From Mycoplasmatota bacterium (GTDB lineage Bacteria; Bacillota_I; Bacilli_A; MAG-NZ), in assembly GCA_018394315.1 (NCBI GenBank), contig CP074575.1, positions 620,001-684,000 of the forward strand: a DNA stretch of 64,000 bases, given 5' to 3'. Shown here one piece after another: positions 37,728-64,000 of the stretch (the stretch's first letter is position 1; each line of letters opens with the position of its first letter). The notes below the pieces were generated by a model. It was not told the DNA's origin. It saw only the letters and a program-made list of their open reading frames with translations, and searched no databases. Both the position numbers and the translations under genes were made by a program.

Positions 37728-37820
37728 GGAGAAATACCCAAGTCCGGCTGAAGGGACTGGTCTTGAAAACCAGCAGGGCGTTTGCGCGCCGCGGGGGTTC
37801 GAATCCCTCTTTCTCCGCCA
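37728..37820 (+). tRNA. tRNA-Ser(TGA); integration site of the downstream elements
   Basis: Loop cttgaaa, long variable arm, GCCA end; last 27 nt repeated downstream. Confidence 0.95.
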
Positions 37821-37907
37821 TAAAAAAAGCATAGGTAAGCGAAAAAACTTTAATTTAACCCAAGGGAGTGTCATGAAAACATGCCGAGGGACTTTAGAGT
37901 AAAATGC

Positions 37908-38855
37908 TTACCTTATTTTATTTAATGGAGAATATTTATTGTGTTGCTCTTTTAGATGATTGTTTGATAAATGTAGATACTCTTGTGTAGTTGTAATCTT
38001 AGCGTGTCCTAAGGTCTCTCTTACGAATTCTATGTTTGCACCATTCTCTAAATAGTTAGTTGCATATGTATGACGGAATTTATGAAAGCTTATACTTACA
38101 TCATTGGGTAAGTTGAGCTTTCTTTTTATTTTCCTAATAACCTTGTCTAGACTATCTGATGCCATTTGTTTCTTTTCGGTAACACATTCGATTAGATACT
38201 CTTTAGGTACTATTTCAGTTAGGTAATTAATAATAGCTGCTTTAGTTTCATCTCCAAAATAAACTGTTCTATGTTTGTTTGTCTTAGTGTATTTTAAATT
38301 GATTTGGTTATTCTCAATGTCTAATTCATTAAGTTTTATATTTCTTAGTTCGTTCTTTCTGATTCCTGTATCATACAAAATGTATATTATTGCTTTGGTT
38401 CTTATTACTTCTTTAGTTTGTTCAGTTATATGGAGATATTGAAAAATTGTCTTAAGAGTTTTTTCATCGATTATTTTTATCTCTGAGTCTTCATTTCTTA
38501 ATTTTTTGAATTTACGCATTGGATTCTCTTTGATTAGGTTTTGGTCTTCGCAATACTGGAGAGCTTGCTTAAGTGTTCCTATACGTTTATTAATAGTTTT
38601 GTTTTTATTGCCTTTGGCTCTTTCATAGTCAATAAAATCATATAATGCATCATTTGTTATTTGAGAAGTAGAAGTAACTAACTTTCTATGAAAGTAATCT
38701 AAAATTGTTTCCAAGTGTTTTTTGTAGTATTGAAATGTATCAATTCTAGTTTCATGCCTACATCGTTTTAGATATATCTCCTGGACTTCTTTCAGTGGAA
38801 TGTTATTATCGTTAGCTTTCACTAACTCAGATATTATTTGTTCTATTTGATTCAT
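37908..38855 (-). CDS. Tyrosine recombinase/integrase
   Basis: DTGIRKNEL (R), TKT (K), HKFRHTYAT (HxxR), LGH...TTQEY (H, Y); next to tRNA 3' end. Confidence 0.95.
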   Translation of the reverse strand: MNQIEQIISELVKANDNNIPLKEVQEIYLKRCRHETRIDTFQYYKKHLETILDYFHRKLVTSTSQITNDALYDFIDYERAKGNKNKTINKRIGTLKQALQYCEDQNLIKENPMRKFKKLRNEDSEIKIIDEKTLKTIFQYLHITEQTKEVIRTKAIIYILYDTGIRKNELRNIKLNELDIENNQINLKYTKTNKHRTVYFGDETKAAIINYLTEIVPKEYLIECVTEKKQMASDSLDKVIRKIKRKLNLPNDVSISFHKFRHTYATNYLENGANIEFVRETLGHAKITTTQEYLHLSNNHLKEQHNKYSPLNKIR

Positions 38856-38948
38856 TTGGGTCCCTTCCTTTCAATTATTGTAATACTGAATTATACAAAA
38901 TTGGGTGGAAGCCTATCTTCTCGGTTATGTCGGAATTGAGTATTTATA

Positions 38949-39158
38949 TTATTTGGTTAGATCTTTGAAAACTAGATCATCAAGAGAAACATTAAACAAC
39001 TCTTTAAAGATTATGAGAGTTGTTAACTTGTAATCAAGAATTTTAGAAGATTCGTACTTTTGGATGGTTCTATCGGATACACCAATTCTCTTTGCTAATT
39101 CCACTTGAGTTAATCCCTCTCTTTCTCTTAGAGTTTTAATGTTCTTATTAACAAACAT
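38949..39158 (-). CDS. XRE/Cro-CI family HTH repressor
   Basis: LREREGLTQVELAKRIGVSDRTIQKYE; divergent from the element's rightward operon. Confidence 0.9.
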   Translation of the reverse strand: MFVNKNIKTLREREGLTQVELAKRIGVSDRTIQKYESSKILDYKLTTLIIFKELFNVSLDDLVFKDLTK

Positions 39159-39167
39159 AACTTCCAT

Positions 39168-39224
39168 TTGACACGAACAAAACAATCGTGTAAAATATAG
39201 TCAACCCGAACAAAATGTTCGTGT
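39168..39224 (+). promoter_or_regulatory. Rightward sigma-A promoter overlapped by two 21-bp palindromic operators
   Basis: ttgaca(39168)-17-taaaat(39191); acacgaacaaaacaatcgtgt (39171-39191) and acccgaacaaaatgttcgtgt (39204-39224). Confidence 0.7.
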
Positions 39225-39325
39225 GATAAAGTACAAAAACTAGAAGTCAAAAGGACTCCTTGTTTATGCATCGCTATAATCAACTCCAACAACTTTGATT
39301 ATAGCATACTTACACATTAATTTAA

Positions 39326-39700
39326 ACCTAGTAGCGTGCGACATAATTTGCTACTAGGTGAAAGTTATTAAACTAAACCAGAGAATTTTTTCATATTTCT
39401 CCTTTAAAATAGACCGCCATTATTATGTTGGCTTTGATGAACCTGACTCTAGCGTGGCGGTCATGGAGTGGGTTCTTCAAAGCCAACATTCTATTTCTCG
39501 CCATATGTGGCGCGTGGCGACTACGTCGCCTATCTGCTTCTTTTTGCTACCTACAGTAAAAACAAATAAATGAACAGCAAGCTGTCATTTTATTTATTTT
39601 ATTATTGTTTAGGTTTTTTGGTTTATACGTTTTCGTATAGGTTCGCGCCACTCGACTTGTGTGAGTATTAGACAAGTTTATCCGCTCTAGAGTGGTGATG
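39326..39700. ncRNA. Candidate structured RNA / leader (or ssDNA origin) of unknown family
   Basis: Several perfect stems of 8-13 bp and a pseudoknot in a GC-enriched noncoding stretch. Confidence 0.5.
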
Positions 39701-39796
39701 GTTAGATTCAACTTTACCAAGATGTTTTCACTCATTGATGCTTTATCTGATGATCTAGTTTTTAAATATCTACATATGAAAGTAGAGGATGTTTAA

Positions 39797-40567
39797 ATGC
39801 TAGGAAAATATACAAAGAATAATATTTATAATGAGGATAGTTATGAAGCTATTAAAGAGATACCTAATAAGAGTATTGATTTGATAGTCATTGATCCCCC
39901 TTATAAATTACATATGAGTACTTGTGAGAATGGATTAAATAGTTCTTGTGCAGTAACAAGAGGTATGAGTAAAGTACAACATGAACTGAAGAATAAAAAC
40001 TTACACGTTGGAATAGATAACGAACTCTTACTAGAAATGGTAAGAGTCATGAAAAAGATAAACATATACATCTGGTGTAATAAAAGACAGCTAAAACAGT
40101 ACTTTGATTTCTTTGATAAGTATGAGTGTAACTTCGAACTCCTGGTGTGGTGTAAGACTAATCCAACACCTGCGGTTAACAATACGTTCTTACCTGATAT
40201 AGAGTATTGCTTCTATTTTAGAGAGAAAGGCGTTAGACTCAAAGGAAACTATCACAGCAAGCATAAGTTCTATATTCGTAAAACTAACCAGGAAGAAAAG
40301 GATTTATTCTTACATCCAACTATAAAACCACTTAAGTTTATAAAGAACTTCATCATAAATTCTAGTGATGAAGGAGATATAGTAGCGGACTTCTTTATAG
40401 GTTCGGGTACAACTGCAGTAGCAGCTAAAGAGTTAAACCGTAATTATATAGGTTTTGAAATTGATCCACAATATTACAAGATTGCATTAGATAGAATTAA
40501 TGGAATTACTGCGAGTGGACAAACAAGTATATTTACAGATTTTAAAAGTATGGAGGAAGTAAAATGA
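39797..40567 (+). CDS. Orphan N6-adenine/N4-cytosine DNA methyltransferase (beta class)
   Basis: DPPY precedes HPTIKP and DFFIGSGTT. Confidence 0.92.
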   Translation: MLGKYTKNNIYNEDSYEAIKEIPNKSIDLIVIDPPYKLHMSTCENGLNSSCAVTRGMSKVQHELKNKNLHVGIDNELLLEMVRVMKKINIYIWCNKRQLKQYFDFFDKYECNFELLVWCKTNPTPAVNNTFLPDIEYCFYFREKGVRLKGNYHSKHKFYIRKTNQEEKDLFLHPTIKPLKFIKNFIINSSDEGDIVADFFIGSGTTAVAAKELNRNYIGFEIDPQYYKIALDRINGITASGQTSIFTDFKSMEEVK

Positions 40568-40860
40568 GAGTAATTAGTAAGGAATTGGAGGTTGATGTTA
40601 ATTACGAAGAAGTAAGTATCGTTGTTGATAAAGGTTTGATTAAAGATGAGTTAAGAGATGATTTTGGTTATGTGAAGATATTTAAACAACTTCTTTATAA
40701 GATTCGTGGCCATAACACAAGAGATTATACCGTAGAGGCAGTTAGTGGCCATCATATCTTTCTATTAGGTGTGTATGATACACATGAACTAGCAGTTAAA
40801 GCTCGAAGTGAAATTACTGAAGCATTTATTGAAGATAAAGAAATATTTTATTTGAAGTAA
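40564..40860 (+). CDS. Hypothetical phage-like protein
   Basis: Overlaps MTase stop, ggagg RBS. Confidence 0.6.
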   Translation: MRVISKELEVDVNYEEVSIVVDKGLIKDELRDDFGYVKIFKQLLYKIRGHNTRDYTVEAVSGHHIFLLGVYDTHELAVKARSEITEAFIEDKEIFYLK

Positions 40861-40872
40861 AGAGGTGATTTT

Positions 40873-41160
40873 ATGGTACTTAGTACTAGTGATAACGGAA
40901 AGTATTTTAAAGGTGTTTATAGTGGTTTCTTCTCTAAAACAAAACTTAGTGGAATCATTAAGAAAGTTAATTTAAATAAAGTAAGTGTCCAGGTACTAAC
41001 TACACTTGATGGATGGACTTATGTGGCTACCTTAATGTGTAGTGCTATACATGAAGTATCTGATAAACCACTAGTATGTATTAATGTTGAAGAGATAAGG
41101 AAATCAATTGAATATCATAGAAGTATTGAAAGACAAAAACGAGATATAACTCGATTATAA
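40873..41160 (+). CDS. Hypothetical protein
   Basis: gaggtg RBS, operonic spacing. Confidence 0.6.
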   Translation: MVLSTSDNGKYFKGVYSGFFSKTKLSGIIKKVNLNKVSVQVLTTLDGWTYVATLMCSAIHEVSDKPLVCINVEEIRKSIEYHRSIERQKRDITRL

Positions 41161-41173
41161 ATGAGGTGAGTAA

Positions 41174-41530
41174 ATGTCAGTTTCAAAGTTTACATATAAG
41201 ACATTTCAATCTTATAACGAGATAAAGGATGAGATTGGTTACTTAGAGTTAAGAGAGTATGTACTGAAAAATCTAAATACAAGAGGTAATACTTTAAAAG
41301 AGTTAAAGTCTATACATGAAAGACTTCCAGAACTAAGAAAAGTACTATCGACTATTGAAAGTAAGATTGAAGAGTTTAGTAAAGAAAACGATAAGCAATA
41401 CCAGGTATTATTTTTAAAGATTATCAAGAGAAAAAGTTACTATCAAATAGCAAGTGAAGTTGATTATAGTGTAAGACATATACAAAGAATCTGTACTGAG
41501 TTTAAAAGAGCTACTAAAGCAGTAGCTTAG
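41174..41530 (+). CDS. Sigma-region-4-like / ArpU-like HTH transcriptional regulator
   Basis: C-terminal KSYYQIASEVDYSVRHIQRI HTH. Confidence 0.7.
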   Translation: MSVSKFTYKTFQSYNEIKDEIGYLELREYVLKNLNTRGNTLKELKSIHERLPELRKVLSTIESKIEEFSKENDKQYQVLFLKIIKRKSYYQIASEVDYSVRHIQRICTEFKRATKAVA

Positions 41531-41548
41531 AAGAAAGGGGGTACTATA

Positions 41549-42397
41549 ATGAAGAAAACTAGATATCATTTCTTTGGAACAGATCCAAACGGACAGTACA
41601 TGGAACATGCATTCACTGATTCATTAAAATTGTTTCAGACTATAGTACCCTGGATGTTGGATAAAGACTTAGAAGAGATTCAAATAACATCACTTAGTTT
41701 AGCAGTAAGATGTCATTTCACTACTAAAGAGTTCCAGGATGAATTTAACCAGGCTAGAAGATTAGGAACTCTAACTGAAGAAATGAAGTTAAAGAAACAT
41801 AGACTAGATTCACGAGTAAATAAGGCATTGGGAATTCTTAAAAACAAGTTAAGACTAATTAATACTAGACAAGTTCATATGAAAGACTTTAATGGGTCCA
41901 AACGTTTTATATCACTTAACAATCCTGAGGTTAATAGATTAGTTTCCACAATGAATCGTGATATAAGAGAATATGAAATTGAAGGTAAGTTATATAACAT
42001 TAAAAAGCATAAAGGACTCTTAATTGTGATTCGAAAGTTTATAAGATACAGAATAGTAACGTTAGAATCAGCAATTAAGAAGTATAAAGATAAGTGGAAT
42101 AAGTATATTAACGCTCAACGTAGAGCGAAGAAAACTAGAGATTTAGTATCGGTCATAGAAAACAACCAGGATGTAATTAAGCTTGTAGAGATTGAATATA
42201 AGCGTAAATTATCATCTAAGGAACGATTTATCATATCGAGGTGGAGATATGATTATGAAGATATTAAGAGTGCTCTACTGAAGACTCTGCAGCTTAAGAA
42301 GTGTAGCGTAGAGTACATGAATAAAATCTTAGAAAGTAGACATCAAGTAATAACTAAAAATTCAGAGCAATTTGACCGATTTGCCGAACAATTTTAA
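41549..42397 (+). CDS. Protein with C-terminal DnaD-like domain (putative replication protein)
   Basis: YKRKLSSKE...W...IKSAL...SVEYMNKILES resembles the DnaD YxxxIL motif. Confidence 0.55.
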   Translation: MKKTRYHFFGTDPNGQYMEHAFTDSLKLFQTIVPWMLDKDLEEIQITSLSLAVRCHFTTKEFQDEFNQARRLGTLTEEMKLKKHRLDSRVNKALGILKNKLRLINTRQVHMKDFNGSKRFISLNNPEVNRLVSTMNRDIREYEIEGKLYNIKKHKGLLIVIRKFIRYRIVTLESAIKKYKDKWNKYINAQRRAKKTRDLVSVIENNQDVIKLVEIEYKRKLSSKERFIISRWRYDYEDIKSALLKTLQLKKCSVEYMNKILESRHQVITKNSEQFDRFAEQF

Positions 42398-42973: not shown

Positions 42974-44002
42974 ATGGTTTTTATTAATGGCACTATATCT
43001 AAGCGAATAATTGAAAGAAAATGTCTTGACGAATCAGGTATAAATGCTCTTAATGGTTTTTCATTTCAGTTTTCAAACGCTATCTATGAAATTGTTGAAA
43101 GATATAAAGGATGCAAGAATTTTTCTATAGTATTTGAGTCTCATGACGACTTTTTGATAATTGACACAAAAGCATTATTCCTCTTTCAGGCAAAAAACTT
43201 TAAAGATAAGACTTTTACTGCACAAAACATTACTAGTGCTAAGGAAAAGTCAATTCTAGCTAAGATGAATCAGGCAAGAGATAATATCAAAGATATCATA
43301 GAAGAAAATGTGATTAGTTATCTCATTATAAACAATGAGAATTCAAAAATCGGATTCAGAGTGAAGCCTAAGAAGAATGAGAAAGCGTACAACACGGAAG
43401 AATATATTGATAAAGTGTGCCTCAGCGTGATATCTGATGACTGTAAGGAAAAGGTACTAGATATACTAAACAACGAAAAGGAATTAGAGACCTTTTTCAT
43501 TAAGAGACAGCTTAGATATTCAAAACATTCAGACGATGTAAGATTATTTATAGAAGACGTACTAAACGATAAGTTTACTGAACCGAAAGTAAATCTTTCA
43601 TCAATATATGATTTTTTAGAAAGACAGATAAAAAATTCAATGTTAGAAAAAAAATACTATAGTTTTACTGACATGGACTCAGATATGCGTAATATCGTGA
43701 GTTTCCAAGTTGATGAGTTTGATGCATTTAGTGAACTTATTTACTTACTAGTAGATTACGATACAGGTGAAAAAAATATCATTAGGAATAGATATAAGGA
43801 GTATGTTACAAAACTGGCAGGGAGTAGAATCAATGATGTATTTAATGACTTTCAATACGTTAAATCCGTTGTTAATAGAGATGACTTGCTAGAAGATAAT
43901 TTGAGACAAGTTCAGCGTGAGAAATTACTAAGTTTTTATGACGGTGAGGAAATTGTATCATTAATTTTGTTAGCTTATGGGGAGAAAAAAAATGATGAAT
44001 AA
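42974..44002 (+). CDS. DUF4297/Cap4-like dsDNA nuclease effector (Lamassu LmuA-like)
   Basis: ESGINALNGFSFQ...FESHDDF...LFQAK signature; overlaps SMC-like ATPase gene. Confidence 0.75.
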   Translation: MVFINGTISKRIIERKCLDESGINALNGFSFQFSNAIYEIVERYKGCKNFSIVFESHDDFLIIDTKALFLFQAKNFKDKTFTAQNITSAKEKSILAKMNQARDNIKDIIEENVISYLIINNENSKIGFRVKPKKNEKAYNTEEYIDKVCLSVISDDCKEKVLDILNNEKELETFFIKRQLRYSKHSDDVRLFIEDVLNDKFTEPKVNLSSIYDFLERQIKNSMLEKKYYSFTDMDSDMRNIVSFQVDEFDAFSELIYLLVDYDTGEKNIIRNRYKEYVTKLAGSRINDVFNDFQYVKSVVNRDDLLEDNLRQVQREKLLSFYDGEEIVSLILLAYGEKKNDE

Positions 44003-45689
44003 ACTGGTTTTGAATAAATTTATCATTCTTAGCGAGGAAGAAAAATCAGCTATAGAGATTGATTTTAGCAATAACTTAAACATCTTTGTAGGTAAGAATA
44101 AATCCGGAAAATCATCACTCGCAAAATCGATATTATACACCCTGGGGTGTGATGTGGTTTTTGAGAATTCATGGAAGAATTTAGGGAAAACATATTTGTT
44201 GTTTTTCTCGTATGGCAATCAAAGTTACTCTATCAAGAGAGTGAATTTAGTTGGTAAGTATAATAATCAAAAAGGGTCTAACGTCTTTGAAGTTATAGAC
44301 CTGGAAACCCAAAAAATATACAAGTTCAACAAAACTACAGAATTTGCTTTTTTCTTGAACGAGCTATTCGGACTAAAGATAAGATTGTTGACCAGAAAAA
44401 AGTTGGAAACTTCAATTATATATCCGAATCACATGTTTCTCTTGAACTATCTAGATCAAGATACCAGTTGGGGAAATTTACTCACTGACACTTTTAACAA
44501 CCAGTCTTTTTTACTAGATTACAAGAATAGTATTTTGGATTTTTTCACAGGATTAAGGACGAATAAGTACTATGAATTAAGTAACAAAATTAAAGAACTA
44601 CAGAATGAAAAACATACTCTTAAGTTGGAATACGATAGTCTAAAGAAATTATACGAAATTAATCTGAAGAAAATTAATAAAATTGAGAACATAGACGTAG
44701 ATGTGTTTAAGGAGAGTATTAAGCTAATAAATAATCATGTCGAAGCCATAATAGGTAAAGAAGCAAAATTGAAAAAGAAGCTTTCATCATTTCTCTACGA
44801 GAGGAGTAAATTATTAGTACTTAATGAAAACCATGATGCAACATTAGAAAAGTCAGATCTTGACGCAAGTGGAAATTGTCCAGTTTGTGGTCTTCATAGG
44901 AAAATGGAGACCAAAAATTTATTTAGGATTACAACTAATATGTACGAACTAAGAAAAGAAAGAGATATGAACCTAGTAAGATTGGCGGACTTGGAGTTGA
45001 AAATCGAAAAGACAAAGGCTGACATAAACCTACTATCAGAAGAACAAAAATCAATGAGCATGCAGTTGAGAGTCGGAAATGAAAAACTTGACTTAATAGA
45101 ATCTATGAAAAATTTTGGCATAATTGAACTGAGTCAGGAATTAGAGAAAGAGTTCATGGAGAAATTATCTAAGATTGAAAGTTTAAACTCTGATATAAAG
45201 ATGAAGCAAAAAATCCTTAAGAGTTTTGATGATAATGAGCAGTTGGTATCGGATTATTATAAAAACTTAAAGAGAATTTTCAATAAACTTAAGATTAATT
45301 TTAAATTCAAGAATGATGCAAATGATTTTATGAGATTCAGCACTTCCTACTCTGGAACGGATAGGGTTTTGTCAATAATTGGATTCTATTTAAATGTCAA
45401 TAGATTTACAACACAGAATTACGACATACCTACTTTTCCATTTATTTTAGATACGTTATATAAAGAAGATTTTGATGACAAAAACGAGTTGAATCTAATT
45501 GAAGTATACATTTTAGAAGTGAGCCAACTAAATCAGCAACAGCTTCTTTTTACATCTGATAAGGCCGAGCTCATATCGTATTTAACAGAAAGTAATATAA
45601 AATATAATGTGATTGAGGGATATAGAAAATTACTAGATGTCAAAAAATATGACGACATCAAGAAAAGATATGCCCAGTTTAATTTATAG
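43992..45689 (+). CDS. SMC/Rad50-like ABC ATPase (Lamassu LmuB-like)
   Basis: GKNKSGKS Walker A, YLDQD..W Q-loop, coiled coils with CPVC hook, YSG signature, PFILDT Walker B. Confidence 0.8.
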   Translation: MMNKLVLNKFIILSEEEKSAIEIDFSNNLNIFVGKNKSGKSSLAKSILYTLGCDVVFENSWKNLGKTYLLFFSYGNQSYSIKRVNLVGKYNNQKGSNVFEVIDLETQKIYKFNKTTEFAFFLNELFGLKIRLLTRKKLETSIIYPNHMFLLNYLDQDTSWGNLLTDTFNNQSFLLDYKNSILDFFTGLRTNKYYELSNKIKELQNEKHTLKLEYDSLKKLYEINLKKINKIENIDVDVFKESIKLINNHVEAIIGKEAKLKKKLSSFLYERSKLLVLNENHDATLEKSDLDASGNCPVCGLHRKMETKNLFRITTNMYELRKERDMNLVRLADLELKIEKTKADINLLSEEQKSMSMQLRVGNEKLDLIESMKNFGIIELSQELEKEFMEKLSKIESLNSDIKMKQKILKSFDDNEQLVSDYYKNLKRIFNKLKINFKFKNDANDFMRFSTSYSGTDRVLSIIGFYLNVNRFTTQNYDIPTFPFILDTLYKEDFDDKNELNLIEVYILEVSQLNQQQLLFTSDKAELISYLTESNIKYNVIEGYRKLLDVKKYDDIKKRYAQFNL

Positions 45690-47170: not shown

Positions 47171-47302
47171 TAGTTAGGTCGATAAAAATAGTAGAATTTG
47201 AGAGCGGCGAAGAAGCTCGATTAGTTATAAGTACTAAAACATATCTTCTCTACCAATTAGTGATGAGTGCTGTAATGATTTATTTGTTGGAACTATTCAA
47301 GG

Positions 47303-47394
47303 TTAGGATTGAAAATCCATGTGTCGTCGGTTCGATGTTGACTGAAGTCCGATATATTAGTTCTGATAAACAAAGGGGATATGACATCCCTTTT
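47303..47394 (+). repeat. 92-bp direct repeat, copy 1 (tRNA-Phe-like fragment plus palindrome)
   Basis: Nearly identical to 48470-48560. Confidence 0.9.
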
Positions 47395-50580: not shown

Positions 50581-50593
50581 TGGGGGGCGTACT

Positions 50594-54657: not shown

Positions 54658-55149
54658 AATAGGATTATACATGAATTTATAGTAGGGGATATGACATCCC
54701 TTGTTATAGATATGCAGATAGGACATTGAGTCCCTTTTGTTTTGCTATTATTTGTTGATATCGAATGGGAGAAGTAAAAATAATCTAGAAACCGGATTAT
54801 TTTTTTGGAAAGTAAGAATCTGTCCCCCTAAAAAGTATAATAGATGTATGGGGATGAAAATCACCCTAGGCGGGTCTTTGAAAAGTTGATAATGAAATAG
54901 GTCGAAAATTGGCTGACGAGGGTTCGACTCCCGTATACTGTTCTAGATCATATTCCATATATTGAATAGATTTATGATGAGAGGGACATGACCTCCCTCA
55001 TTATATTTATACAGAGGACATTGATTCCCTTTTCATGTCTCTCTTGATAAAATAAATTACTAGGAACTAGTCAAAGGGACAATGAATTTCCTTTTCTTTA
55101 TTGTAATTTGTGGTTTTATGGTAAGATGTTATTAAATAGAGGTGAGCGT

Positions 55150-56322
55150 ATGTATGATAAGATGTTTCAGTCATTAGCTAAAGAATTAGATACCCTTGAA
55201 TCTCATAATATTTTCTTCAATACGTTCAATATTTTTGAAACATTGGGCGTTGTTAACGCCGAAATAAGGCATAGTAATGTTTTGGCGTGGTTACTTGATA
55301 GCTCTGAAACACATGGGTTAGAGGAAGTCTTCGTCAAGTTACTTTTGAATGACTTTGCTAATGTATATGATTATAAATTTTTAGCACAAGGAATAGCTTT
55401 CTCAGGTTTCGAAGTGAGGAGAGAGTGGAAAAACATCGACCTTCTCTTGATATCTCAGAGAGATAAAGTCGTTCTTACAATCGAAAATAAGATTTGGAGT
55501 TCTGAGTTTGATCATCAACTTGAGAAATATAAACGCATAGTAAATCAGAATTTCGGAGAGTATAAAAAAATATTTGTATTTTTATCTCCATTCGGTACTC
55601 CACCAAGTGATATGGATTATTGGTTAATATATGATTACTCCAGAGTTTTGGTAATATTGGAGGAATTGATTGAGAATAACAGAATCAATGTCTCTGATGA
55701 TGTTAGAATGTTTATTTTACATTATATAGAGAATCTTAGGAGGAATATCGTGGGAGATGAGAAATTAAGAGAACAATGTATAGAGATATACAGCAAACAT
55801 AAAAGAGCAATAGATCTGATAATTGATAATTTGCCTAATAATAGAAATGTGATTCAAAGGATAATCAATAACTATCTCTCTAACAGAGCTAATGTAGTTA
55901 AAGATGATTCAGGAAAGACTCGTATCAGGTTTACTACAAGAGTTTTGGATGGTCTAGTTCCTGCGGATGGAAGTGGCTGGACAAAGACTGGGAGGATTTT
56001 TTTGTTTGAGATTGAGAACTTCGAGCATCATGTGAAATTGAAAACTGTAGTGGGTCCTTCTTTGACTGGAAGTAGAGATATTCTACATGAATATATATGT
56101 AATAATAAAGCTAGTGGTCTCTTTCAAGATGCTGACTTAGAAGAGCAATCTGGAAAAAAATGGTCTCATGTAAACGGAATAGAATTAATAGACAGAAGTC
56201 CGACTGATATTTATGATGAAGGCTTACTAGAAAATATAATTATAACTAAATTAGATGTTGCTTTTGATGAATATATTCTTAAAGTGGAAAAGATGATATC
56301 TAGGTTTTACAAAAATGAATAG
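55150..56322 (+). CDS. PD-(D/E)XK nuclease superfamily protein (PDDEXK_4-like)
   Basis: EIRHSNVLAWLLD...HGL, RE...IDLL, IENK...QLEKY. Confidence 0.82.
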   Translation: MYDKMFQSLAKELDTLESHNIFFNTFNIFETLGVVNAEIRHSNVLAWLLDSSETHGLEEVFVKLLLNDFANVYDYKFLAQGIAFSGFEVRREWKNIDLLLISQRDKVVLTIENKIWSSEFDHQLEKYKRIVNQNFGEYKKIFVFLSPFGTPPSDMDYWLIYDYSRVLVILEELIENNRINVSDDVRMFILHYIENLRRNIVGDEKLREQCIEIYSKHKRAIDLIIDNLPNNRNVIQRIINNYLSNRANVVKDDSGKTRIRFTTRVLDGLVPADGSGWTKTGRIFLFEIENFEHHVKLKTVVGPSLTGSRDILHEYICNNKASGLFQDADLEEQSGKKWSHVNGIELIDRSPTDIYDEGLLENIIITKLDVAFDEYILKVEKMISRFYKNE

Positions 56323-56573
56323 ATTTGACTAACACATTTGATACCAAACTGGGTCTTATAGGGTTGTTGAATGCAATCTATGAAAAGAATGAACATAACA
56401 GGAAAGTTGCAAAACAAGGGTTAGAAACAATTACGTTTCAGAACTGTTAGAAAGGTTTGAGCTTGATTTTTTTGAATGAGGAGTAATTGCTACCGGCCAG
56501 TCGGATGCTGTACCTATACTCATTCTAAAAAATTAAATTTACCTACTAAAATAACTAATTGAAGGAGGAAAAC

Positions 56574-57851
56574 ATGTTAAAAGTAAAAAATTATAAAATC
56601 ATTAGAGAAGCAGAAATCAAAGTTGATGGTATTGTAGTATTGGCTGGGAAAAATAACACAGGAAAGAGTACAATAAGTGACTGTATGTATTACTCATCAA
56701 TAAAGGAAAGCCTAGGTGAAAAAGATTTTATGGCAGATTTATCTAATTATTGTTATGAAAGAATCAAAGAAGTTACAGGATTTACGCGTTCTAGTATTTT
56801 GAGGGATAATAAGAAATTAAAAGATTTCTATTCAAGATTTGATGATTTTTTATTAAATCTTACAGGATTTATGCATCCTGAAGATATATATAAATCTTGT
56901 AAATCTTTTCGTGAGCACACTGAGATAATACTCAGGGATGTTTTGGGTCTGGAAAAGAACAGATCAAGTAAAAATAGACTATATAGAAGTACTTTCTTAA
57001 ATTATAAGGATATTTTTGAAGAATTAATGTTGTTCATTGAGGAAAGCGACTTTGATGAATTTGTTGATAAATATGCTGACTCCTTACACAGTACTATTTT
57101 TCCTGAAGGTACTTTACCTAGGTTTAACAATTTAATTATGAGTGAAAGAAACTATAAGCAAACACTTTCCTTTGGTAATGGTTGTAAAATTAATAATGCA
57201 ATATATGTGAAAAGCCCTGTACTATGGGCTGAAAATTCTAATAGAAATAGATTTGATGAGAACCCAACTCTTCATTTAATTAAAAAAAATAAAACTGATT
57301 ACTTATCATATTTAACATCAACAAAAAAAACTTTCAGCAGCATCTATGGTGAAGATAAAGAAATCGGAATAGTAGCAGATTTTGTACATGAAGCCGAAAA
57401 AATTATTGAAGGGTCATTGTTCCTGGATAAGAACAATGAAATTAAATTTACAAATAAGTTTGGTAATGAGTTCACTTTAAATGAGATGGGAACAGGGTTT
57501 TCCAATTTTGCAATTTTATTACTATTGATCCAACATAACCAAATAGATGAGAATACACTTATTATATTCGATGAGCCTGAATCACACCTTCATACATTAT
57601 GGCAGTATGATATTGGTAGATTGTTTGTATTGATGCACAAGTACTTCAAATGTCCCATTTTCATTAACTCTCACAGTTCTCTAATTATTGAATCAATCGA
57701 ATCAAATTCAGAAGAGCAAGCGATAGAGGCTAATTATTACCTTACAAGCAGAAATAAGGATGGTAGTTATACTGTTGAGAACAAAACTGATAATATTAAT
57801 GAAATCTATAGAGAATTATCAAGAGCATCTAGAAAAATTAAATATGGTTAA
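56574..57851 (+). CDS. AAA_15/AAA_21-like ABC ATPase
   Basis: GKNNTGKS, MGTG signature, IIFDEPESHLH, NSHS. Confidence 0.85.
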   Translation: MLKVKNYKIIREAEIKVDGIVVLAGKNNTGKSTISDCMYYSSIKESLGEKDFMADLSNYCYERIKEVTGFTRSSILRDNKKLKDFYSRFDDFLLNLTGFMHPEDIYKSCKSFREHTEIILRDVLGLEKNRSSKNRLYRSTFLNYKDIFEELMLFIEESDFDEFVDKYADSLHSTIFPEGTLPRFNNLIMSERNYKQTLSFGNGCKINNAIYVKSPVLWAENSNRNRFDENPTLHLIKKNKTDYLSYLTSTKKTFSSIYGEDKEIGIVADFVHEAEKIIEGSLFLDKNNEIKFTNKFGNEFTLNEMGTGFSNFAILLLLIQHNQIDENTLIIFDEPESHLHTLWQYDIGRLFVLMHKYFKCPIFINSHSSLIIESIESNSEEQAIEANYYLTSRNKDGSYTVENKTDNINEIYRELSRASRKIKYG

Positions 57852-58386
57852 CCTTATGAAAAAGCAAGATTATATCAGTGCTATTAATTCAACTTATACT
57901 AATTACATAAAGTCTGCAAAGATCATTTCATATGATGATACTAACGATGTCTATGTTACAAGCTTATTAAAGGAATTCTGGGAATTTGATAAAATATCTC
58001 AGAGGGATCATAATGGAGTTAGAAGTGTGGATACAGTTATCATTAATAATGATTTGTTTTTAATAGAATTTAAAAACACAAGATCTCTTAAATCTGCAAA
58101 CATTAGACAGAAATATTTTGATACATTTATAGTTTTACTAGAGTCTTATTATAAGATGCTCAGCAGTAAAATTCATATTGACACTTTTTTGCAGTCATTT
58201 GATTCTGTAAATGTAATAGTTGTTAACTCTCAATATAGACCTAGTCATTCAGCAACTTTGGATGAATATAGAAGGAGATATGAGATTTTGTTTCCAAAGA
58301 TTAAGAATCTAATCTTTGATGCAATGGATCCAGAGGATTTTACAAATCGGTTTTCTGAATTTGACTATGCAACACATTGTTACTAG
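57844..58386 (+). CDS. Small PD-(D/E)XK-like partner of the ATPase
   Basis: RSVD...FLIEFKN...RQK motif; overlaps ATPase stop. Confidence 0.6.
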   Translation: MVNLMKKQDYISAINSTYTNYIKSAKIISYDDTNDVYVTSLLKEFWEFDKISQRDHNGVRSVDTVIINNDLFLIEFKNTRSLKSANIRQKYFDTFIVLLESYYKMLSSKIHIDTFLQSFDSVNVIVVNSQYRPSHSATLDEYRRRYEILFPKIKNLIFDAMDPEDFTNRFSEFDYATHCY

Positions 58387-58610
58387 TCAGAGCAACAGGC
58401 ATAAAACATTAAAACTGCTTTTGGAAGTCATTTATTGACTTCTTTTTTTTAGAAAGTTGTACAATCGATCTCCAACACCGTGGTGATAGATCACACAATA
58501 AGAAGCCTCTAAAAAAGTGGCTTTTGTGATATATATAGAATATGCGCAAATAACATGTTAATATTATTATGTATAAGATTTGAGGATACATCAGTAAGAG
58601 GAGGGGTAAC

Positions 58611-59789
58611 ATGGATAATGGAGTGAGATTTGCATTATTGGATACAAAGAAAGCATTAGATCTATGTGATGTTTATAACGATCTATTGCCACTAAAAGGG
58701 AAGATTCGTAAAGCATATAATAGACTTAAAAACACTAGTAAGACAGGTGATTTGCTCAGATATCTAGAAAAATTTGAAAGTGAAAAGCATAGGGATGCTG
58801 ATGAATTTCAAGTGTTCCATAAATACAATCTTGTGACATTTGAAGAAATGGGACCTATCATTAGAAGGGAATTTAGTGATGAGATACTGAATATTTCCAA
58901 AATTTCTGAGTTAATACTAGGCAAGTCTTATAATAACTATGAAATAATTAACACTTTTCAATGCTCCGAACAAGGAGGTATGAGGAGATCTCACAAAACT
59001 AATACACTCGTAATTGTTTCCGATCATACAAAACCGTTATACGACGATAGATGGGATGAAGAAGGTGTACTTCACTATACTGGCATGGGAAAATCGGGAG
59101 CTATGGACATAGATTTTGCTCAGAACAGAACTGTAAAAGAGTCAGGGGTAAATTCTACAGAGATGCACTTGTTTGAAGTATTTGATAGTAGCACTAATAC
59201 TAAATATGTTTACAGAGGTATTATTGAATTATATGCTCAACCATATCAAGATAATCAAATTGGTGAAGATGGAAACTTAAGGAAAGCCTGGATATTCCCT
59301 CTATTACCGCGTCATCGTTTTACTGTTAACTCAATCAGATTAAAAAAAATTGGTGATGAAAAAGATAAAACTGCTGCTAGAATGTCGGATGAAGTGATAA
59401 ATAAATACGCTAAATCAAGAAGCAATCAACCTCCATCAAAAAGAATTGCTCGCACTGTAATTGTGAATAGAGACCCAATTGTCAAGGAATTCGTAAAGAG
59501 GAGAGCTAATGGGAGATGCGATCTTTGTGATGAAGATGCACCGTTTAAAGTCAAAGAAAAAATTCCATATTTAGAAGTACATCACATAATACAACTAGCT
59601 GATGATGGACCAGATACAATTTATAATGCTGTAGCACTTTGTCCTAACTGTCATAGAAAAGTTCATTATGCTTTAGAAACACAGGACAGAGTAAAAATGT
59701 TAAGAAAACTGGATAAGTATTTAAATAATGATAATGACAAAGAAAATAAGGAAAGTTTTATTAAATTGTTTGCGCTTGGTGAGAACTAG
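58611..59789 (+). CDS. SRA-like domain plus HNH endonuclease (McrA-like)
   Basis: GGMRRS...YDDRW...HYTGMG; CDLC...EVHHI...NAVALCPNCH. Confidence 0.82.
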   Translation: MDNGVRFALLDTKKALDLCDVYNDLLPLKGKIRKAYNRLKNTSKTGDLLRYLEKFESEKHRDADEFQVFHKYNLVTFEEMGPIIRREFSDEILNISKISELILGKSYNNYEIINTFQCSEQGGMRRSHKTNTLVIVSDHTKPLYDDRWDEEGVLHYTGMGKSGAMDIDFAQNRTVKESGVNSTEMHLFEVFDSSTNTKYVYRGIIELYAQPYQDNQIGEDGNLRKAWIFPLLPRHRFTVNSIRLKKIGDEKDKTAARMSDEVINKYAKSRSNQPPSKRIARTVIVNRDPIVKEFVKRRANGRCDLCDEDAPFKVKEKIPYLEVHHIIQLADDGPDTIYNAVALCPNCHRKVHYALETQDRVKMLRKLDKYLNNDNDKENKESFIKLFALGEN

Positions 59790-59829
59790 AATTAAATAGA
59801 TATAAATATTTCAAATAGGAGGGTATGAT

Positions 59830-60051
59830 ATTAATAAAAGAGGAATTGGAGTAGCATTTTGTGGGATTTCTTCATTACTGTTTAGTTCATGGTATATAAG
59901 TGCAGCAATTATCTTTCAAGGGTTGACTAGGTGGAGTGGGAATAAGTTCAAATATTCACTAGGTCAAGTTGGTGTCTTATTACCTTTATTAAGTATTATT
60001 GCTTTAGTAGTAGGGATTGTATATTTAGTAAAATTCAAGAATGAAAGGTAA
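59830..60051 (+). CDS. Small two-TM protein, apparent ATT start (not in ORF track)
   Basis: ggaggg RBS 6 nt before ATT; 73 sense codons (x)NKRGIGVAFCGISSLLF... Confidence 0.5.
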   Translation: MNKRGIGVAFCGISSLLFSSWYISAAIIFQGLTRWSGNKFKYSLGQVGVLLPLLSIIALVVGIVYLVKFKNER

Positions 60052-60314
60052 ATCATAACTATATGATTTATTTTTTTTAGAGTGACATATAGGTGTCAGT
60101 GTGAAGGTGGATATTGAACTTGAGTTAACAAAGATTGAATATAGATTTGAAGAATTAATTTCATAAATTTGGGGTTCACTTCACAGACATTCCTTTTTCT
60201 TGTTACTTTTTTATTATGATACCAAGAATGCAGTAAGAGAAAATATAAAGTATAATTTATCGGGAAATATTGATCCCTTTATGCGCGCTTCTCTGACATA
60301 GAAAGGTTGGAGAA

Positions 60315-60536
60315 ATGAAAGGAAAAGTGGTTAGAAAAGCAATTGAGATTTATCAATTAATGGTTGTAGAAGAAAAAGCATACTCAAAGGAGGAATTATC
60401 TGAAGAATTAAAAGTATCTATAAGAGCTATTCAGGATTACTTTGGAGAAATCAATATTTACCTCTTTGACAGACATGATTATAGGCAGATTTTGTATGAT
60501 CGCTCAATAAAAAAACATGTTATCAAAGCAATCTAA
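60315..60536 (+). CDS. Small winged-HTH protein, copy 2
   Basis: SKEELSEELKVSIRAIQDY HTH; followed by aaaagcag/ctgctttt terminator. Confidence 0.8.
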   Translation: MKGKVVRKAIEIYQLMVVEEKAYSKEELSEELKVSIRAIQDYFGEINIYLFDRHDYRQILYDRSIKKHVIKAI

Positions 60537-60657
60537 AAGCAGAATATATTTCCTGCTTTTTCTTTTACCTGGAAGATAGGCTTCCGACTGACATGATATA
60601 ATGTGTTGAAATATAAAAAAATAATAGATGTAAATAAAGCTTATTTATTGTTCCTTC

Positions 60658-60684
60658 GGGGTTCGAATCCCTCTTTCTCCGCCA
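60658..60684 (+). repeat. Exact 27-bp tRNA-Ser 3' att copy
   Basis: ggggttcgaatccctctttctccgcca equals 37794-37820. Confidence 0.95.
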
Positions 60685-60770
60685 TAAAAACATGATAGGT
60701 AAGCGAAAAAACTTTGATTTAGCCCAAGGGAGTGTATGAGATTCATTCCTGGGGACTTTAGAGTAATTGC

Positions 60771-60960
60771 TTACCTTATTTTATTTATTGGAGAATACTT
60801 GCTGTGTTGCTCTTTTAGATGATTATTTGATAAGTGTAGATACTCTTGAGTTGTTGTTATCTTAGCGTGTCCTAAGGTTTCTCTTACAAATTCTATGTTT
60901 GCACCATTCTCTAAATAGTTAGTAGCATATGTATGACGGAATTTATGAAAGCTTATACTT
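60771..60960 (-). pseudogene. Integrase C-terminal remnant
   Basis: Closely matches 37908-38097 (SISFHKFRHTYAT...YSPINKIR); 5' part deleted. Confidence 0.9.
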
Positions 60961-61580
60961 GATTTTGGAGTAAGGACGGATAGTACAAAATAATCTTCAA
61001 AGTCTTTTATATATTATAAAAGCGTCGCTCATGTAACTTTGTCGTAAGGTTATTAAGTCTGTTTACCTTTCCCATTGTTTCTTTAAGAGTACCTATAGTC
61101 AATTCACTTTCATAACTTCCACTCTCAATTATAATAAAGACTCTGTTAGTAGCTAAAAATTTGCATCAATACCCATAAAATAGACGCTTAAAGCGGCTAT
61201 TTTAAGTAGATGTTTACTATGAAAGAATTTTCCTTGAGTAAAAATTTATCGTGTGATATAGTAACATAACCAGATACTAATAAAATTCAAATGAAGGGAG
61301 GAAGTTAATCGCTGATACAATTATAATGGGAAGGCACCTCAATAAGCTTGGTTAGGTAAGCTAAACAACGTGAAGTTTTATTCCACTTATATTATCAGGT
61401 AGTAAAAAATCATTAAGTAAATTATCTAGAAGTTATGTTATTCTTTATTAATTGTTCTATTAATTGCGGTAAGTTGTAACCACTCTTTCTAAGCTACATG
61501 TTGAAATATTGACACACCTATATTTAGTATAATTATTGGTATGTGGGGAAGTGTCTAAACAGAGTAAGGAGAGAAATAAA

Positions 61581-62261
61581 ATGAAAAAGATTTTTAGTTA
61601 CTTAATATTATTAGTGCTTTCGATTACGTTGGTTTCTGTAAGTGCTAGTGAGTCAAGAGTACAAATAATTACTGATAATCAGAATGTTAGAGTAGTAAAA
61701 GGTGTCGAGGGGGACATAATAACTTATGCAACATATAATAAGATTGCCAATACCCTGGAGTATACAGAATATACTAAGGGTGATAAAGAGAATTCTGTAA
61801 CAACATTGCTCAATCTAAATAATGTTAACATTCCTATTGAAAACGATAGTATTACGACTATGGGAACTTCTATTGAACAAAAAACATATTCGAATTATGA
61901 ATATAAAATAACATTTGGTTCACCAAATCATTGGGAATTAAGAAGACCCCAACCTGGATCATGGACTAGTCTTTACTATTTTACAACTTATGAACGTTCA
62001 GACTTATTAACTGATCTTAATAATTTTAGAAACACAGTGGAAGATATTGATGATTTAGAAAAAGAAATTATTTTCTACGGTGGTGTCGCTATTATTGGAA
62101 CTGTTTTACTACTTATATTCACTTCAGGAACCAGTGCTGGATTACAAGCAGCTTTAGCATCCGCTGGTATATTTGGAGTTGTTGCTGACCTTACTATGGA
62201 TCTTGATCGAGCTATTGACGATGCTTATTATTATTATTTTAGAGTGTATAATGCAAAATAG
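61581..62261 (+). CDS. Secreted protein, geobacillin-26-like bacteriocin candidate
   Basis: Sec signal peptide, TYSNYEY...WELRRP motif recalled from that family, Gly/Ala-rich hydrophobic C-terminal hairpin. Confidence 0.5.
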   Translation: MKKIFSYLILLVLSITLVSVSASESRVQIITDNQNVRVVKGVEGDIITYATYNKIANTLEYTEYTKGDKENSVTTLLNLNNVNIPIENDSITTMGTSIEQKTYSNYEYKITFGSPNHWELRRPQPGSWTSLYYFTTYERSDLLTDLNNFRNTVEDIDDLEKEIIFYGGVAIIGTVLLLIFTSGTSAGLQAALASAGIFGVVADLTMDLDRAIDDAYYYYFRVYNAK

Positions 62262-62457
62262 TTTAATCCTATTTGGTTTTGTTGATGCGGTTTATTGGTT
62301 TATAGCTATCATGTTATTGATTAATGGTATTATTTTATTCTATAAATTTGGCCTAAAAGGAAGTCATGAGGCTTCAAAAAAAGTCGGGATAGTTATGATC
62401 ATATTTTCATTATTAGTAATATTATTTTTATTATATCAAGTATTCTTTTTAAATTAA
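62251..62457 (+). CDS. Small two-TM protein (possible immunity protein)
   Basis: Overlaps upstream stop; two hydrophobic helices. Confidence 0.5.
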   Translation: MQNSLILFGFVDAVYWFIAIMLLINGIILFYKFGLKGSHEASKKVGIVMIIFSLLVILFLLYQVFFLN

Positions 62458-62680
62458 TCTAAGTAAAGTATCTAATACTATTTATATAATACAGCATAAA
62501 TATAATCATTTTGGTAAAATTGATTTTCAAAGGTTGTCATTCGAAAGAATTGCGACCTTTTTTCTTGTAACTTTTTTATGATAATACTAATAATGCAGTA
62601 AGAGAAAATATAAAGTATAATTTAACGGGGAAATATTGATCCCTTGATGCGCGCTTCTCTGACTTAGAAAGGTTGGAGAA

Positions 62681-62902
62681 ATGAAAGGAAAAGTAGTTAG
62701 AAAAGCAATTGAGATTTATCAATTAATGGTTGTAGAAGAAAAAGCATACTCAAAGGAGGAATTATCTGAAGAATTAAAAGTATCGATAAGAGCTATTCAG
62801 GATTACTTTGGAGAAATCAATATTTACCTCTTTGACAGACATGATTACAGGCAGATCATGTATGATCGCTCAATAAAAAAGCATGTTATCAAAGAAATCT
62901 AA
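62681..62902 (+). CDS. Small winged-HTH protein, copy 3
   Basis: 71 of 73 aa identical to copy 2. Confidence 0.8.
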   Translation: MKGKVVRKAIEIYQLMVVEEKAYSKEELSEELKVSIRAIQDYFGEINIYLFDRHDYRQIMYDRSIKKHVIKEI

Positions 62903-63023
62903 AAGCAGAATATATTTTCTGCTTTTTCTTTTACCTGGAAGATAGGCTTCCGACTGATGTGATATAATGCGTTGAAAAATTAAAAATAAATAGATGTAAA
63001 AAAGACTTATTTATTGTTCCTAC

Positions 63024-63050
63024 GGGGTTCGAATCCCTCTTTCTCCGCCA
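63024..63050 (+). repeat. Exact 27-bp tRNA-Ser 3' att copy
   Basis: Equals 37794-37820. Confidence 0.95.
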
Positions 63051-63137
63051 TATAAAATTGATAGGTAAGCGAAAAAACTTAGTTAGAATCTATGGGACTG
63101 CCACAGATTTAGTCTTGAGGACTCTTAAGTTAATTGC

Positions 63138-63236
63138 TTGTCTTTTTTTATATAGTGGAGACTATTCATTGTACTGTTTTTGTAAGTGTTCACTGTATAA
63201 ATGCAAAAAGATTTGTGTAGTAGTAATCTTTGCATT
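63138..63236 (-). pseudogene. Diverged integrase C-terminal remnant
   Basis: Translates AKITTTQIFLHLYSEHLQKQYNE*SPL versus AKITTTQEYLHLSNNHLKEQHNKYSPL in the intact integrase. Confidence 0.8.
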
Positions 63237-63357
63237 TACTAACGTTTCAAGTCGACCTTGATAAGTCATTTTAATTTTACTATTATTCTATATTGAATCG
63301 CTAAATTATTAAACCTAACTAATATGATTATTGCTCAAGTAAAAAAAATCACATTTT

Positions 63358-63801
63358 CTATTTGTTAGGCTCTATAAAATCTTTTATATTTCCTGCTTCT
63401 TTATATTCTGCAATATAAATTTTTTTGAATTCCAAATTTTCATTCGTATATCTCATAAATCCGTTATCTTCTTCAAACTCAAGTGGATAATCTTCTCCTA
63501 TATCCAAAACTATCTTATATTTGGTATAGTAACCTTTATCATGTTTAAAATATGATTTTGGAAACTTTAATTCTGATATAAATTTTAATATTGGCTTCAT
63601 CTCATCTCCAGTATATTCATATACAGGAGGATTCATGTAATCCTCATAATAATCGTAGATTAATACTTTATTCACTTCATCCAAAGGGATTTTTGGAGGC
63701 TTGTTTTCATAATTAGTATCCACAGAAAATACTAAAATTATAGTAACAACTATAACACAAATAAGAATGTACTTCCAATTAACTTTACCTTTCCATTTCA
63801 T
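63358..63801 (-). CDS. Hypothetical membrane-anchored protein
   Basis: aagggga RBS, N-terminal TM. Confidence 0.65.
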   Translation of the reverse strand: MKWKGKVNWKYILICVIVVTIILVFSVDTNYENKPPKIPLDEVNKVLIYDYYEDYMNPPVYEYTGDEMKPILKFISELKFPKSYFKHDKGYYTKYKIVLDIGEDYPLEFEEDNGFMRYTNENLEFKKIYIAEYKEAGNIKDFIEPNK

Positions 63802-64000
63802 ATCTTATCCCCTTATCTTGTTGGAATTGCTTATTTACTCTTAAATATACTCTTCGTGAGTAGATTAATTTAGTTGAACCTGTCACATATATGTTTTTAC
63901 ACAATTATGTATAAGTGATTTGCTGTTACAAATACTTTTTAATTAGCTAAGTTGTTTATTAATGATTCTAATCTTAAAAGGCTTTGGAATTACTGTTCAT

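Follow-up and report, generated by a model that had tools for sequence, protein, structure and literature searches.

The DNA analysed here is a 64,000-nt window of contig CP074575.1 (positions 620,001 to 684,000) from a Mycoplasmatota bacterium, and its right-hand portion carries an island of tandem units at the gene for tRNA-Ser(TGA) (37728..37820, plus strand, called by ARAGORN), which is present in a single copy among the 34 tRNA and tmRNA calls of the genome. Coordinates are positions in the window unless a contig (G000:C1) or locus (L) label is given; G000 is the genome under study, G001 a congener that is 55% complete, and G004 a member of another genus. A 22-nt core from the 3' half of the tRNA was found at 37794, 53916 (one mismatch), 60658 and 63024, with none expected by chance as judged from 100 shuffles. 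We refer to the successive copies of the T-loop core of this tRNA as J0 (37794-37820, the attachment site attL) to J5, and to the blocks between them as units 1 to 5. The initial annotation had placed four attachment (att) copies at these positions and units of 16.1, 6.7 and 2.4 kb between them, and both claims were confirmed. It had described the fourth unit as open, but this unit closes at 64273 with J4, and a fifth closes at about 65479 with J5, in which one T-loop base is changed; both cores lie past the window.

The peptidase gene that follows J5 is also found downstream of the same tRNA in G004, so that synteny resumes at this point. Six relatives were examined at the tRNA-Ser locus, and in each of the five informative ones, which belong to other genera (the contig of G003 ends about 100 nt past the tRNA) there is a single core, showing that the insert is absent there. 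Because cores run as far as J5, where synteny with G004 resumes, and because relatives carry one core, the island is 27.7 kb long and consists of five units. Left arms are homologous in units 1, 3 and 4 and right arms in units 1 to 3; units 4 and 5 end in right arms unlike these, that of unit 4 being of another type and unit 5 being unrelated, and the small helix-turn-helix (HTH) gene of the other units is absent from both. All 27 nt are intact in J2, J3 and J4, even though the sequences beside these cores have diverged by 16-30%. The locus thus shows the features of a tRNA-targeted tandem island, namely a whole tRNA, a tyrosine integrase and co-oriented, displaced tRNA 3' fragments, and the view that tandem units of one element family accrete at this tRNA is upheld by the six cores, the homologous arms and the single-core relatives.

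Composition of the units

Unit 1 begins with a left arm (37821..37907, plus strand) that takes up the space from the tRNA to the integrase stop codon and folds into a long hairpin (fold of -25 kcal/mol, a value without shuffle control). The tyrosine integrase gene that follows (int; 37908..38855, minus strand) is whole, points at the tRNA and codes for 315 amino acids (aa) with the Pfam SAM-like and catalytic domains; no other unit has a whole integrase gene, and in this respect the tRNA-proximal unit is indeed the only intact one. The protein is Xer-like in size, no N-terminal arm-binding domain was detected in the Pfam scan, and residues R166, K191, H258, R261, H284 and Y293, which we take to be the catalytic residues, are invariant across 7 family members. 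It scored 64 bits on the IntI model TIGR02249, whose cut-off is 265, and was matched better by XerC/XerD/XerA-type models, every one of them below its own cut-off. Identity to the integrases of the elements at tRNA-Arg and tmRNA is 55% and 52%, respectively. An integrase-family alignment search returned 23 genome loci and 8 distant viral loci, the relatives coming from Mycoplasmatota, Izemoplasmatales or Tenericutes sequences, while single-sequence scans of metagenome and viral contig collections found no relative.

In front of int lies an inverted repeat (38907..38921, minus strand), a putative operator situated 11 nt upstream of a TATAAT box, followed by an Xre-family HTH repressor gene identified by Pfam (38949..39185, minus strand); of the gene set by which a phage satellite (PICI-like) or defective provirus is recognised, int and this repressor are present in the unit. 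Domain and homology searches assigned to the backbone (39797..42397, plus strand) an N6/N4 DNA methylase, proteins of 98 and 95 aa, a 118-aa putative regulator and a 282-aa unnamed protein. Over 3.4 kb the backbone is 91% identical in nucleotides to the element at tRNA-Arg(TCT), and the methylase, 118-aa and 282-aa genes have homologs in the tmRNA element as well. Database searches with the 282-aa protein gave only two matches, both on the contig of this genome, and tblastn added a relative of 32% identity in genome G005.

The cargo of unit 1 starts with a Lamassu-like pair (42974..45689, plus strand), in which PADLOC recognized LmuA, a Cap4 nuclease (E 2e-13), beside LmuB, an SMC-like ATPase (E 2e-65), with no match to LmuC. 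Two unnamed open reading frames (ORFs) follow, and then a nested cassette (47300..48560, plus strand) whose NUDIX gene (47466-48416) lies between two direct repeats of 95 nt, each with the tRNA-Phe anticodon arm at its start. The first copy of the small, winged-HTH-like gene (48680..48955, plus strand) is frameshifted after residue 67, is followed by a terminator and a broken operator, and lies 3.3 kb away from the unit 1 terminus. Between the two is a 2.9-kb cargo block (49123..52051, plus strand) coding for a weakly Abi_2-like protein of 229 aa, a 200-aa protein and an HTH-membrane protein of 334 aa; it ends at a tRNA-Trp anticodon-arm core (52036) and is 97% identical to a block in the tRNA-Ser(GCT) island of G004. 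The right arm itself is in two parts (52228..52252, with the operator, and 53852..53937, with J1; plus strand), separated by a 1.6-kb IS110 (52253..53851, minus strand; transposase 52357-53568) whose insertion point is the TG of the TGnTATAAT box in this arm, between a GGAAG motif and TGATATAAT. J1 (53916) stops after 22 nt, matches at 21 of 27 positions and lacks the CCA.

Unit 2 does not keep both of its ends, since core J1 is cut and sequence comparison detected neither a left arm nor an integrase trace after it. A DNA search of 300 genomes of the class with the stretch following J1 gave no homolog, so that a copy predating the deletion was not found among them. Domain and defence models assigned to the cargo of this unit (54034..59789, plus strand) a 207-aa protein, a PD-(D/E)XK protein of the PDC-S26 type, an AAA ATPase with a 208-aa partner and an HNH protein resembling type IV restriction enzymes, the last three being defence-like modules; the unit is interrupted by a tmRNA/His-type arm with half a core (54775-54932), a tRNA-Trp core (58465) and a third, decayed arm. 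This decayed arm, which belongs to another family, closes the next segment (59802..60185, plus strand), itself 85% identical to one within the tRNA-Arg array. At the right end (60194..60684, plus strand) HTH copy 2 (60315-60536), a terminator, the operator, TGATATAAT and a perfect J2 (60658) succeed one another, and the right end of unit 3 (62559..63050, plus strand) repeats this order with HTH copy 3 (62681-62902) and a perfect J3 (63024). Unit 3 opens with a left arm and an in-frame integrase tail of 63 codons (60685..60962, minus strand; 95% aa identity to unit 1) and has cargo (61536..62457, plus strand) that codes for a 241-aa member of the geobacillin-26 family and for a small membrane protein. 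In unit 4, a left arm and a decayed integrase tail of 36 codons with one stop (63051..63251, minus strand), closest to the unit 1 integrase of the 7 tested, precede a gene for a 147-aa membrane-anchored, unannotated protein (63358..63801, minus strand), and a phosphotriesterase-family gene lies between J4 and J5.

Resemblance to unit 1 falls with distance from the tRNA, from 91.5% over the 305 nt of left arm and integrase tail in unit 3 to 71.6% over 225 nt at the left end of unit 4 and to the mutated loop of J5. The progressive decay of integrase tails proposed in the initial annotation holds for unit 4, with its stop codon, but not for unit 3, whose tail is truncated yet in frame and has a low ratio of nonsynonymous to synonymous differences (pN/pS 0.11). 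Likewise, a family that keeps both ends plus the small HTH gene describes unit 3 but not units 1, 2 and 4, and in the sister tRNA-Arg array the whole HTH gene is retained only in the proximal unit. Units 3 and 4 have kept both att sites and lost integrase and transfer genes, as is characteristic of cis-mobilisable elements (CIMEs), and in unit 3 both sites, J2 and J3, are perfect; unit 2, without a left arm, does not have this structure. A fixed resolution site for the loss of backbones was considered and rejected because the integrase tails stop at different codons. Cargo that was expected to be mostly defence-like gave clear defence-model matches in 5 of the 16 cargo ORFs of the window, all in units 1 and 2, and weak ones in two more (Abi_2 below its cut-off, and NUDIX on a partial PADLOC model).

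The right arm, its putative operator and the small HTH gene

A common terminus of about 100 bp at the end of each complete unit is real in units 1 to 3, although the unit 1 copy is not contiguous owing to IS110, and the segments from TATAAT to the core are 85-92% identical across the three copies. Four copies of the inverted repeat GGAAGATAGGCTTCC lie in the window, those in the arms at 52228, 60571 and 62937 and the one before int, against none by chance; the repeat is invariant in the three arms and always stands 11 nt before TATAAT, a spacing that in unit 1 reappears once IS110 is removed in silico. The tRNA-Arg element has an inverted repeat of its own in the same two positions and with identical spacing. 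We read GGAAGATAGGCTTCC as a putative operator common to int and the right arm, and because the same operator lies 11 nt before TATAAT in both places, the arm, composed of terminator, operator and extended -10 box, is probably regulated together with int. Each Ser arm contains TGnTATAAT without a consensus -35; the arm boxes were not listed by the sigma-70 scan and are to be taken as extended -10 matches only.

The small HTH gene that precedes the arm is a candidate directionality factor or regulator. Its neighbours in the Atlas are unnamed or HTH_11/Mga-like, a protein 81% identical to it is coded for in one named genome, and homologs lie near arms or cores at some, though not all, of the eight other loci inspected. 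In G001 the order HTH gene, arm and Ser core recurs, with the core cut at the same base as J1, and G005 likewise has an HTH gene followed by a cut Ser-type core; at the level of DNA, a search with the Ser-type arm and HTH gene gave no match in G001 (with its 55% completeness), G002, G004 or G005, and the Ser arm pattern had 0 matches in metagenome contigs. Comparison of the HTH copies in pairs gave pN/pS values of 0.19, 0.15 and 0.07 over 66 codons (Fisher p 0.002-0.007), and the unit 3 integrase tail compared with unit 1 gave its value of 0.11 over 64 codons (p 4e-5). The conservation of right ends and HTH copies that had been noted earlier thus extends, for the HTH copies, to purifying selection. 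These low ratios point to HTH copies and a unit 3 integrase tail that diverged while functional, and therefore to separate arrivals of relatives rather than to duplication.

Arrays at other tRNA genes

The same architecture is found in G000 at tRNA-Arg, tmRNA and tRNA-Gln, and in G004 (8 copies of one arm). It is most developed behind the tRNA-Arg(TCT) element (G000:C1:1420400-1479865, L002 and L032-L034, minus strand), where 22 copies of an arm of about 110 nt were catalogued over 51 kb. Only three of them are followed by the tRNA 3' end, and the remaining 19 junctions pass into foreign DNA right after the 7-nt loop; the units in between, bounded by tRNA cores and arms, mostly hold one gene and are for the most part 0.6-1.7 kb long. 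The first base after the loop is C in 12 of 14 independent junctions (five paralogs dropped), bases 2 to 11 are rich in C (46 of 140, p about 2e-7) and in pyrimidines (p about 6e-7), and composition returns to background beyond them. Eleven nucleotides is the length of a recombinase half-site.

Three units of this array that we take to be serpin-like from our own reading of the sequence are 91-94% identical and stand in differing orders, with different upstream arms and neighbours. Their downstream arms are 99-100% identical and their upstream arms 84-90%, compared with a mean of 86% over all 190 arm pairs, and the same cassette start was found joined at the T-loop to the arm of another family. 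Four lipoprotein-like units (79-96% identical) also occur in different orders. Across 60 kb the number of consensus matches in the Arg arms stays at 68-80 and shows little trend. Of the first genes that follow half-core junctions, 12 of 19 are co-oriented with the arm's -10 box, pointing away from it. G001 has five Arg-type arm copies, three of them followed by foreign DNA. Taken together, the junctions of the tRNA-Arg array give real support to site-specific joining of one-gene units, as far as sequence comparison can indicate. Anticodon-arm cores of tRNA-Phe and tRNA-Trp bound cargo in the Ser array itself, in 2 and 3 copies that are all co-oriented; the whole genome has 18 and 17 of them, true tRNAs included, versus 0-2 and 0-3 in 10 shuffles.

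Further arrays were observed beside these. At G000:C1:576000-583000, ten co-oriented 20-nt tRNA-Phe anticodon-arm cores are interspersed with small genes that stand singly. No tRNA was called in the vicinity and none of the listed ORFs is an evident integrase; the region resembles a cassette cluster without an integrase. The array at tRNA-Gln(TTG) (window 18130-21358, minus strand) is also integrase-less; it has two more tRNA-fragment copies (19680 and 18174), a Phe core at 19867 and chimeric arms that begin like the Arg-type arm. Long arrays of the same layout occupy tmRNA-type and tRNA-Ser(GCT) sites in G004 (L025, L026, L132-L136; L027, L063), whose islands are dense in anticodon-arm cores, with up to 16 Phe cores in 20 kb. 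A small element at tRNA-Trp (G000:C1:6002-7883 and 19-600) codes for what is presumably a rolling-circle Rep, according to its motifs, and for an integrase 37% identical to the tRNA-Phe integrase of G004, which makes the Trp enzyme a candidate for acting on anticodon-arm cores.

Predicted excision products

Joining J0 to J2 in silico rebuilt tRNA-Ser exactly. Joining J0 to J1 gave a tRNA that ARAGORN still calls but in which bases 1 and 72 form G1-U72, the T-stem has a second wobble (an extra G-U pair), the discriminator is A and the CCA is missing. It is doubtful that every unit can excise by itself, since unit 1 on its own would leave an altered copy of the sole tRNA-Ser(TGA). Unit 1 seems in effect to borrow the right end of unit 2, and the likely clean excision unit is units 1 and 2 together (22.9 kb) or a longer segment. 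The unit 1 integrase is predicted to recombine J0 with J2, J3 or J4, each time leaving a perfect tRNA; unit 3 alone could be freed as a CIME-like circle, and J0 x J1 recombination would be selected against.

Discussion

The results presented here are best accounted for by repeated site-specific insertion of related small integrative elements in the T-loop of tRNA-Ser(TGA), by which older arrivals would be pushed outward and later stripped of their backbone. We consider it reasonably probable that the five-block stack arose by such repeated integration, followed by backbone loss partly through deletion and partly through integrase acting on degenerate half-sites. Each incoming circle would recombine in the T-loop of the restored tRNA and leave an attP-like junction with the older unit. 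In units 3 and 4 the backbone may then have been lost by ordinary deletion with different break points inside int, while in unit 2 and at most tRNA-Arg junctions it may have been lost by joining at or beside the core, probably when the integrase paired an attP-like junction with a degenerate site further down. The outcome would be units of cargo plus arm that a live integrase could carry along.

Several observations weigh against this account. In the tmRNA-type array of G004 the whole 3' end follows 8 of 8 arms, so that half-site joining is not general, and J1 keeps 10 of its 11 right-hand bases, which equally fits a short-homology deletion or a secondary-site event. Family searches of unit 1 found no relaxase, type IV secretion system, primase, terminase or capsid match, three of the backbone proteins having no family. 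The fold model of the small HTH protein is poor (single-sequence, predicted local distance difference test score, pLDDT, of 55) and unusable. Moreover, the purifying selection may be older than the loss of backbones, and present maintenance of the distal HTH copies is not implied by it.

Integrons are defined by an IntI recombinase, attI, attC and a Pc promoter. The arrays resemble them in having one tyrosine recombinase beside mostly one-gene, integrase-less units with repeated boundaries, most clearly in the Arg array, and differ from them in a recombinase other than IntI, in boundaries that, as found here, consist of tRNA-derived cores plus an element arm and not of attC, and in the orientation of int, which points to the array start. 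A working integron-like platform, in which simple integrases would excise and re-insert one-gene circles at tRNA cores across families and keep actively reshuffled cassette stores, is in our opinion unlikely. It would explain the arm, T-loop and foreign DNA structure of most Arg junctions and the small size of their units, the paralogous serpin-like and lipoprotein-like units in different orders, the near identity of the downstream arms of the former against the background mean, the cassette start shared with another family's arm and the well-kept arm consensus, as well as the Phe and Trp cores that bound Ser-array cargo far above shuffles and the cargo block nearly identical in another genus. 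However, the integrase falls far short of the IntI cut-off, the downstream arms of the four lipoprotein-like units are no closer than background (0.87-0.93), and RecA exchange between 110-nt repeats could also yield repeat-bounded duplicates. Within the Ser array only J1 is of the arm, core and foreign DNA type, and a Pc-like role of the arm is weak because no more than 12 of 19 first genes are co-oriented. The integron-like stockpile envisaged in the initial annotation fails in its resemblance to IntI and keeps the joining of one-gene units seen at tRNA-Arg. It is possible, and we propose it tentatively, that in this family of wall-less Mycoplasmatota the arrays amount to an integron equivalent without IntI and attC, in which Xer-sized integrases acting on tRNA-loop cores (T-loop for Ser, Arg, His and tmRNA; anticodon arm for Phe and Trp) would turn elements into one-gene cassettes via degenerate 11-nt half-sites, exchanged between arrays, families and genera, the Ser array representing an early stage and the Arg array a mature one.

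At the opposite extreme, successive insertions might have left a graveyard in which every distal unit is inert and drifts neutrally, with ends that still look alike only because the units arrived recently. The IS110 that splits the unit 1 arm, the frameshift in HTH copy 1, the cut J1, the mutated loop of J5 and the stop in the unit 4 tail are all in line with this, and the non-coding arms (84-92%) are not conserved beyond the expectation from synonymous sites (pS 0.10-0.25). We nevertheless regard it as improbable in view of J2, J3 and J4, intact between diverged flanks, of the operator, unchanged in three arms with its spacing kept, and of the whole integrase with a matching operator. Local tandem duplication or an assembly artefact is very improbable: copies of HTH gene plus arm are 93-97% identical, as duplicates might be, but most of their differences are synonymous, unrelated cargo lies between them, and other tRNAs and other genomes show this layout too.

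The insertion and stripping of related elements that we favour has clear precedents. Tandem tRNA-targeted islands were already called known in the initial annotation, and accretion with CIME-like remnants has indeed been published (PMC5704250, PMC7563491). CIMEs are described there as integrase-less elements that keep their att sites beside a live element and are cis-mobilisable (PMC5704250, PMC7563491), and composite excision through the outer att sites has been described for CIME tandems (PMC5704250). As in the streptococcal tandems of integrative and conjugative or integrative and mobilizable elements (ICE/IME) with CIMEs, a live element lies at the target and decayed att-flanked elements lie behind it, the most decayed furthest away (PMC5704250, PMC7563491); decay greatest furthest from the target gene is reported among 37 composites of two or three elements (PMC7563491). 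In contrast to these composites (PMC7563491), unit 1 gave no match to a relaxase or conjugation gene, the stack is five units long and the tRNA-Arg array has 22 junctions, and many junctions retain only the left half of the site. For comparison, Islander is reported to list 125 tandems of two or more islands and 4 of three or more (PMC4383910).

Additive flexible islands of Alteromonas are alike in having cassettes at tRNA and tmRNA genes marked by partial-tRNA repeats, with near-identical cassettes across species (PMC4898812). Here, in addition, the integrase family has been identified, along with a conserved 100-nt arm whose putative operator also precedes int; that work, as far as consulted, describes no such arm. 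In the tycheposon islands of Prochlorococcus newcomers push older elements inward, leaving partial tRNAs and integrase fragments, and their targets include tRNA-Ser(TGA), tRNA-Arg(TCT) and tmRNA, as in this genome (10.1101/2020.12.28.424599); the host phylum and gene set are different, and unit 1 has no primase, helicase or capsid match. The IntS/TorI system of prophage KplE1 also has regulatory sites shared by the integrase promoter and the att region, together with a small directionality factor, and can serve as a model for the putative shared operator and the small HTH; its promoter overlaps attL (PMC2951348), whereas the int promoter of unit 1 is about 1 kb inside the element and its matching motif is in the far arm. 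Literature searches, in which subscription journals were thinly covered, turned up no report of tRNA cassette arrays with half-site junctions and none of these elements in Mycoplasmatota. The element family, the sharing of an operator between int and the arm, and long arrays joined at half-sites were likewise absent from the results and are apparently new relative to the literature searched.

Tandem islands occur commonly at tRNA genes, and random deletion is the usual explanation for the reduction of their old members to units of cargo alone. An alternative that lends itself to testing is provided by this genome, in which there are one small integrase, defined arms whose putative operator is also that of int, and dozens of junctions broken precisely at the crossover loop. 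If the integrase does make and re-insert such units, this would explain how additive islands become cassette arrays and would reveal a route of gene capture, anti-phage genes included, in a group with few described mobile elements; if it does not, the locus remains a clear case of CIME-type accretion.

Sister element at tmRNA and minor observations

The tmRNA-anchored sister element (G000:C1:1043126-1058712, L003) has six extra membrane-protein genes (103-898 aa), and similar blocks occur in G005 and G001. One of its proteins, of 700 aa, has N-terminal membrane segments, a conserved GxxGxGK motif (Walker-A-like, or P-loop), an RH...Q motif and 89 unnamed relatives. An RH...Q motif is also a feature of Zot/pI ATPases; Pfam, PHROGs, PDB, phage records, viral contigs, the Atlas and the fold model (pLDDT 44) named no family for this protein. 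For this reason a virus label for the element was not adopted. With its membrane proteins and P-loop ATPase, the sister element is a possible helper for transfer of the islands between cells, and possibly a non-lytic provirus.

The unit 1 IS110, like its relatives in G001 and G004, is inserted at a TG that has a TATAAT-like box after it, and a box of this kind also follows a solo right end (window 52253-53851; L141:2230-3860; L063:5620-7240; G000:C1:914141-914291). Through the right end, TTTATA comes to stand 17 nt ahead of TATAAT, and the element may target and rewire extended -10 promoters. Short palindromes of the type GGGATATGACATCCC / GGACATTGAGTCC recur within the cargo at 45943, 47374, 48540, 48627 and 54684-55100, and also near the end of the tmRNA element.

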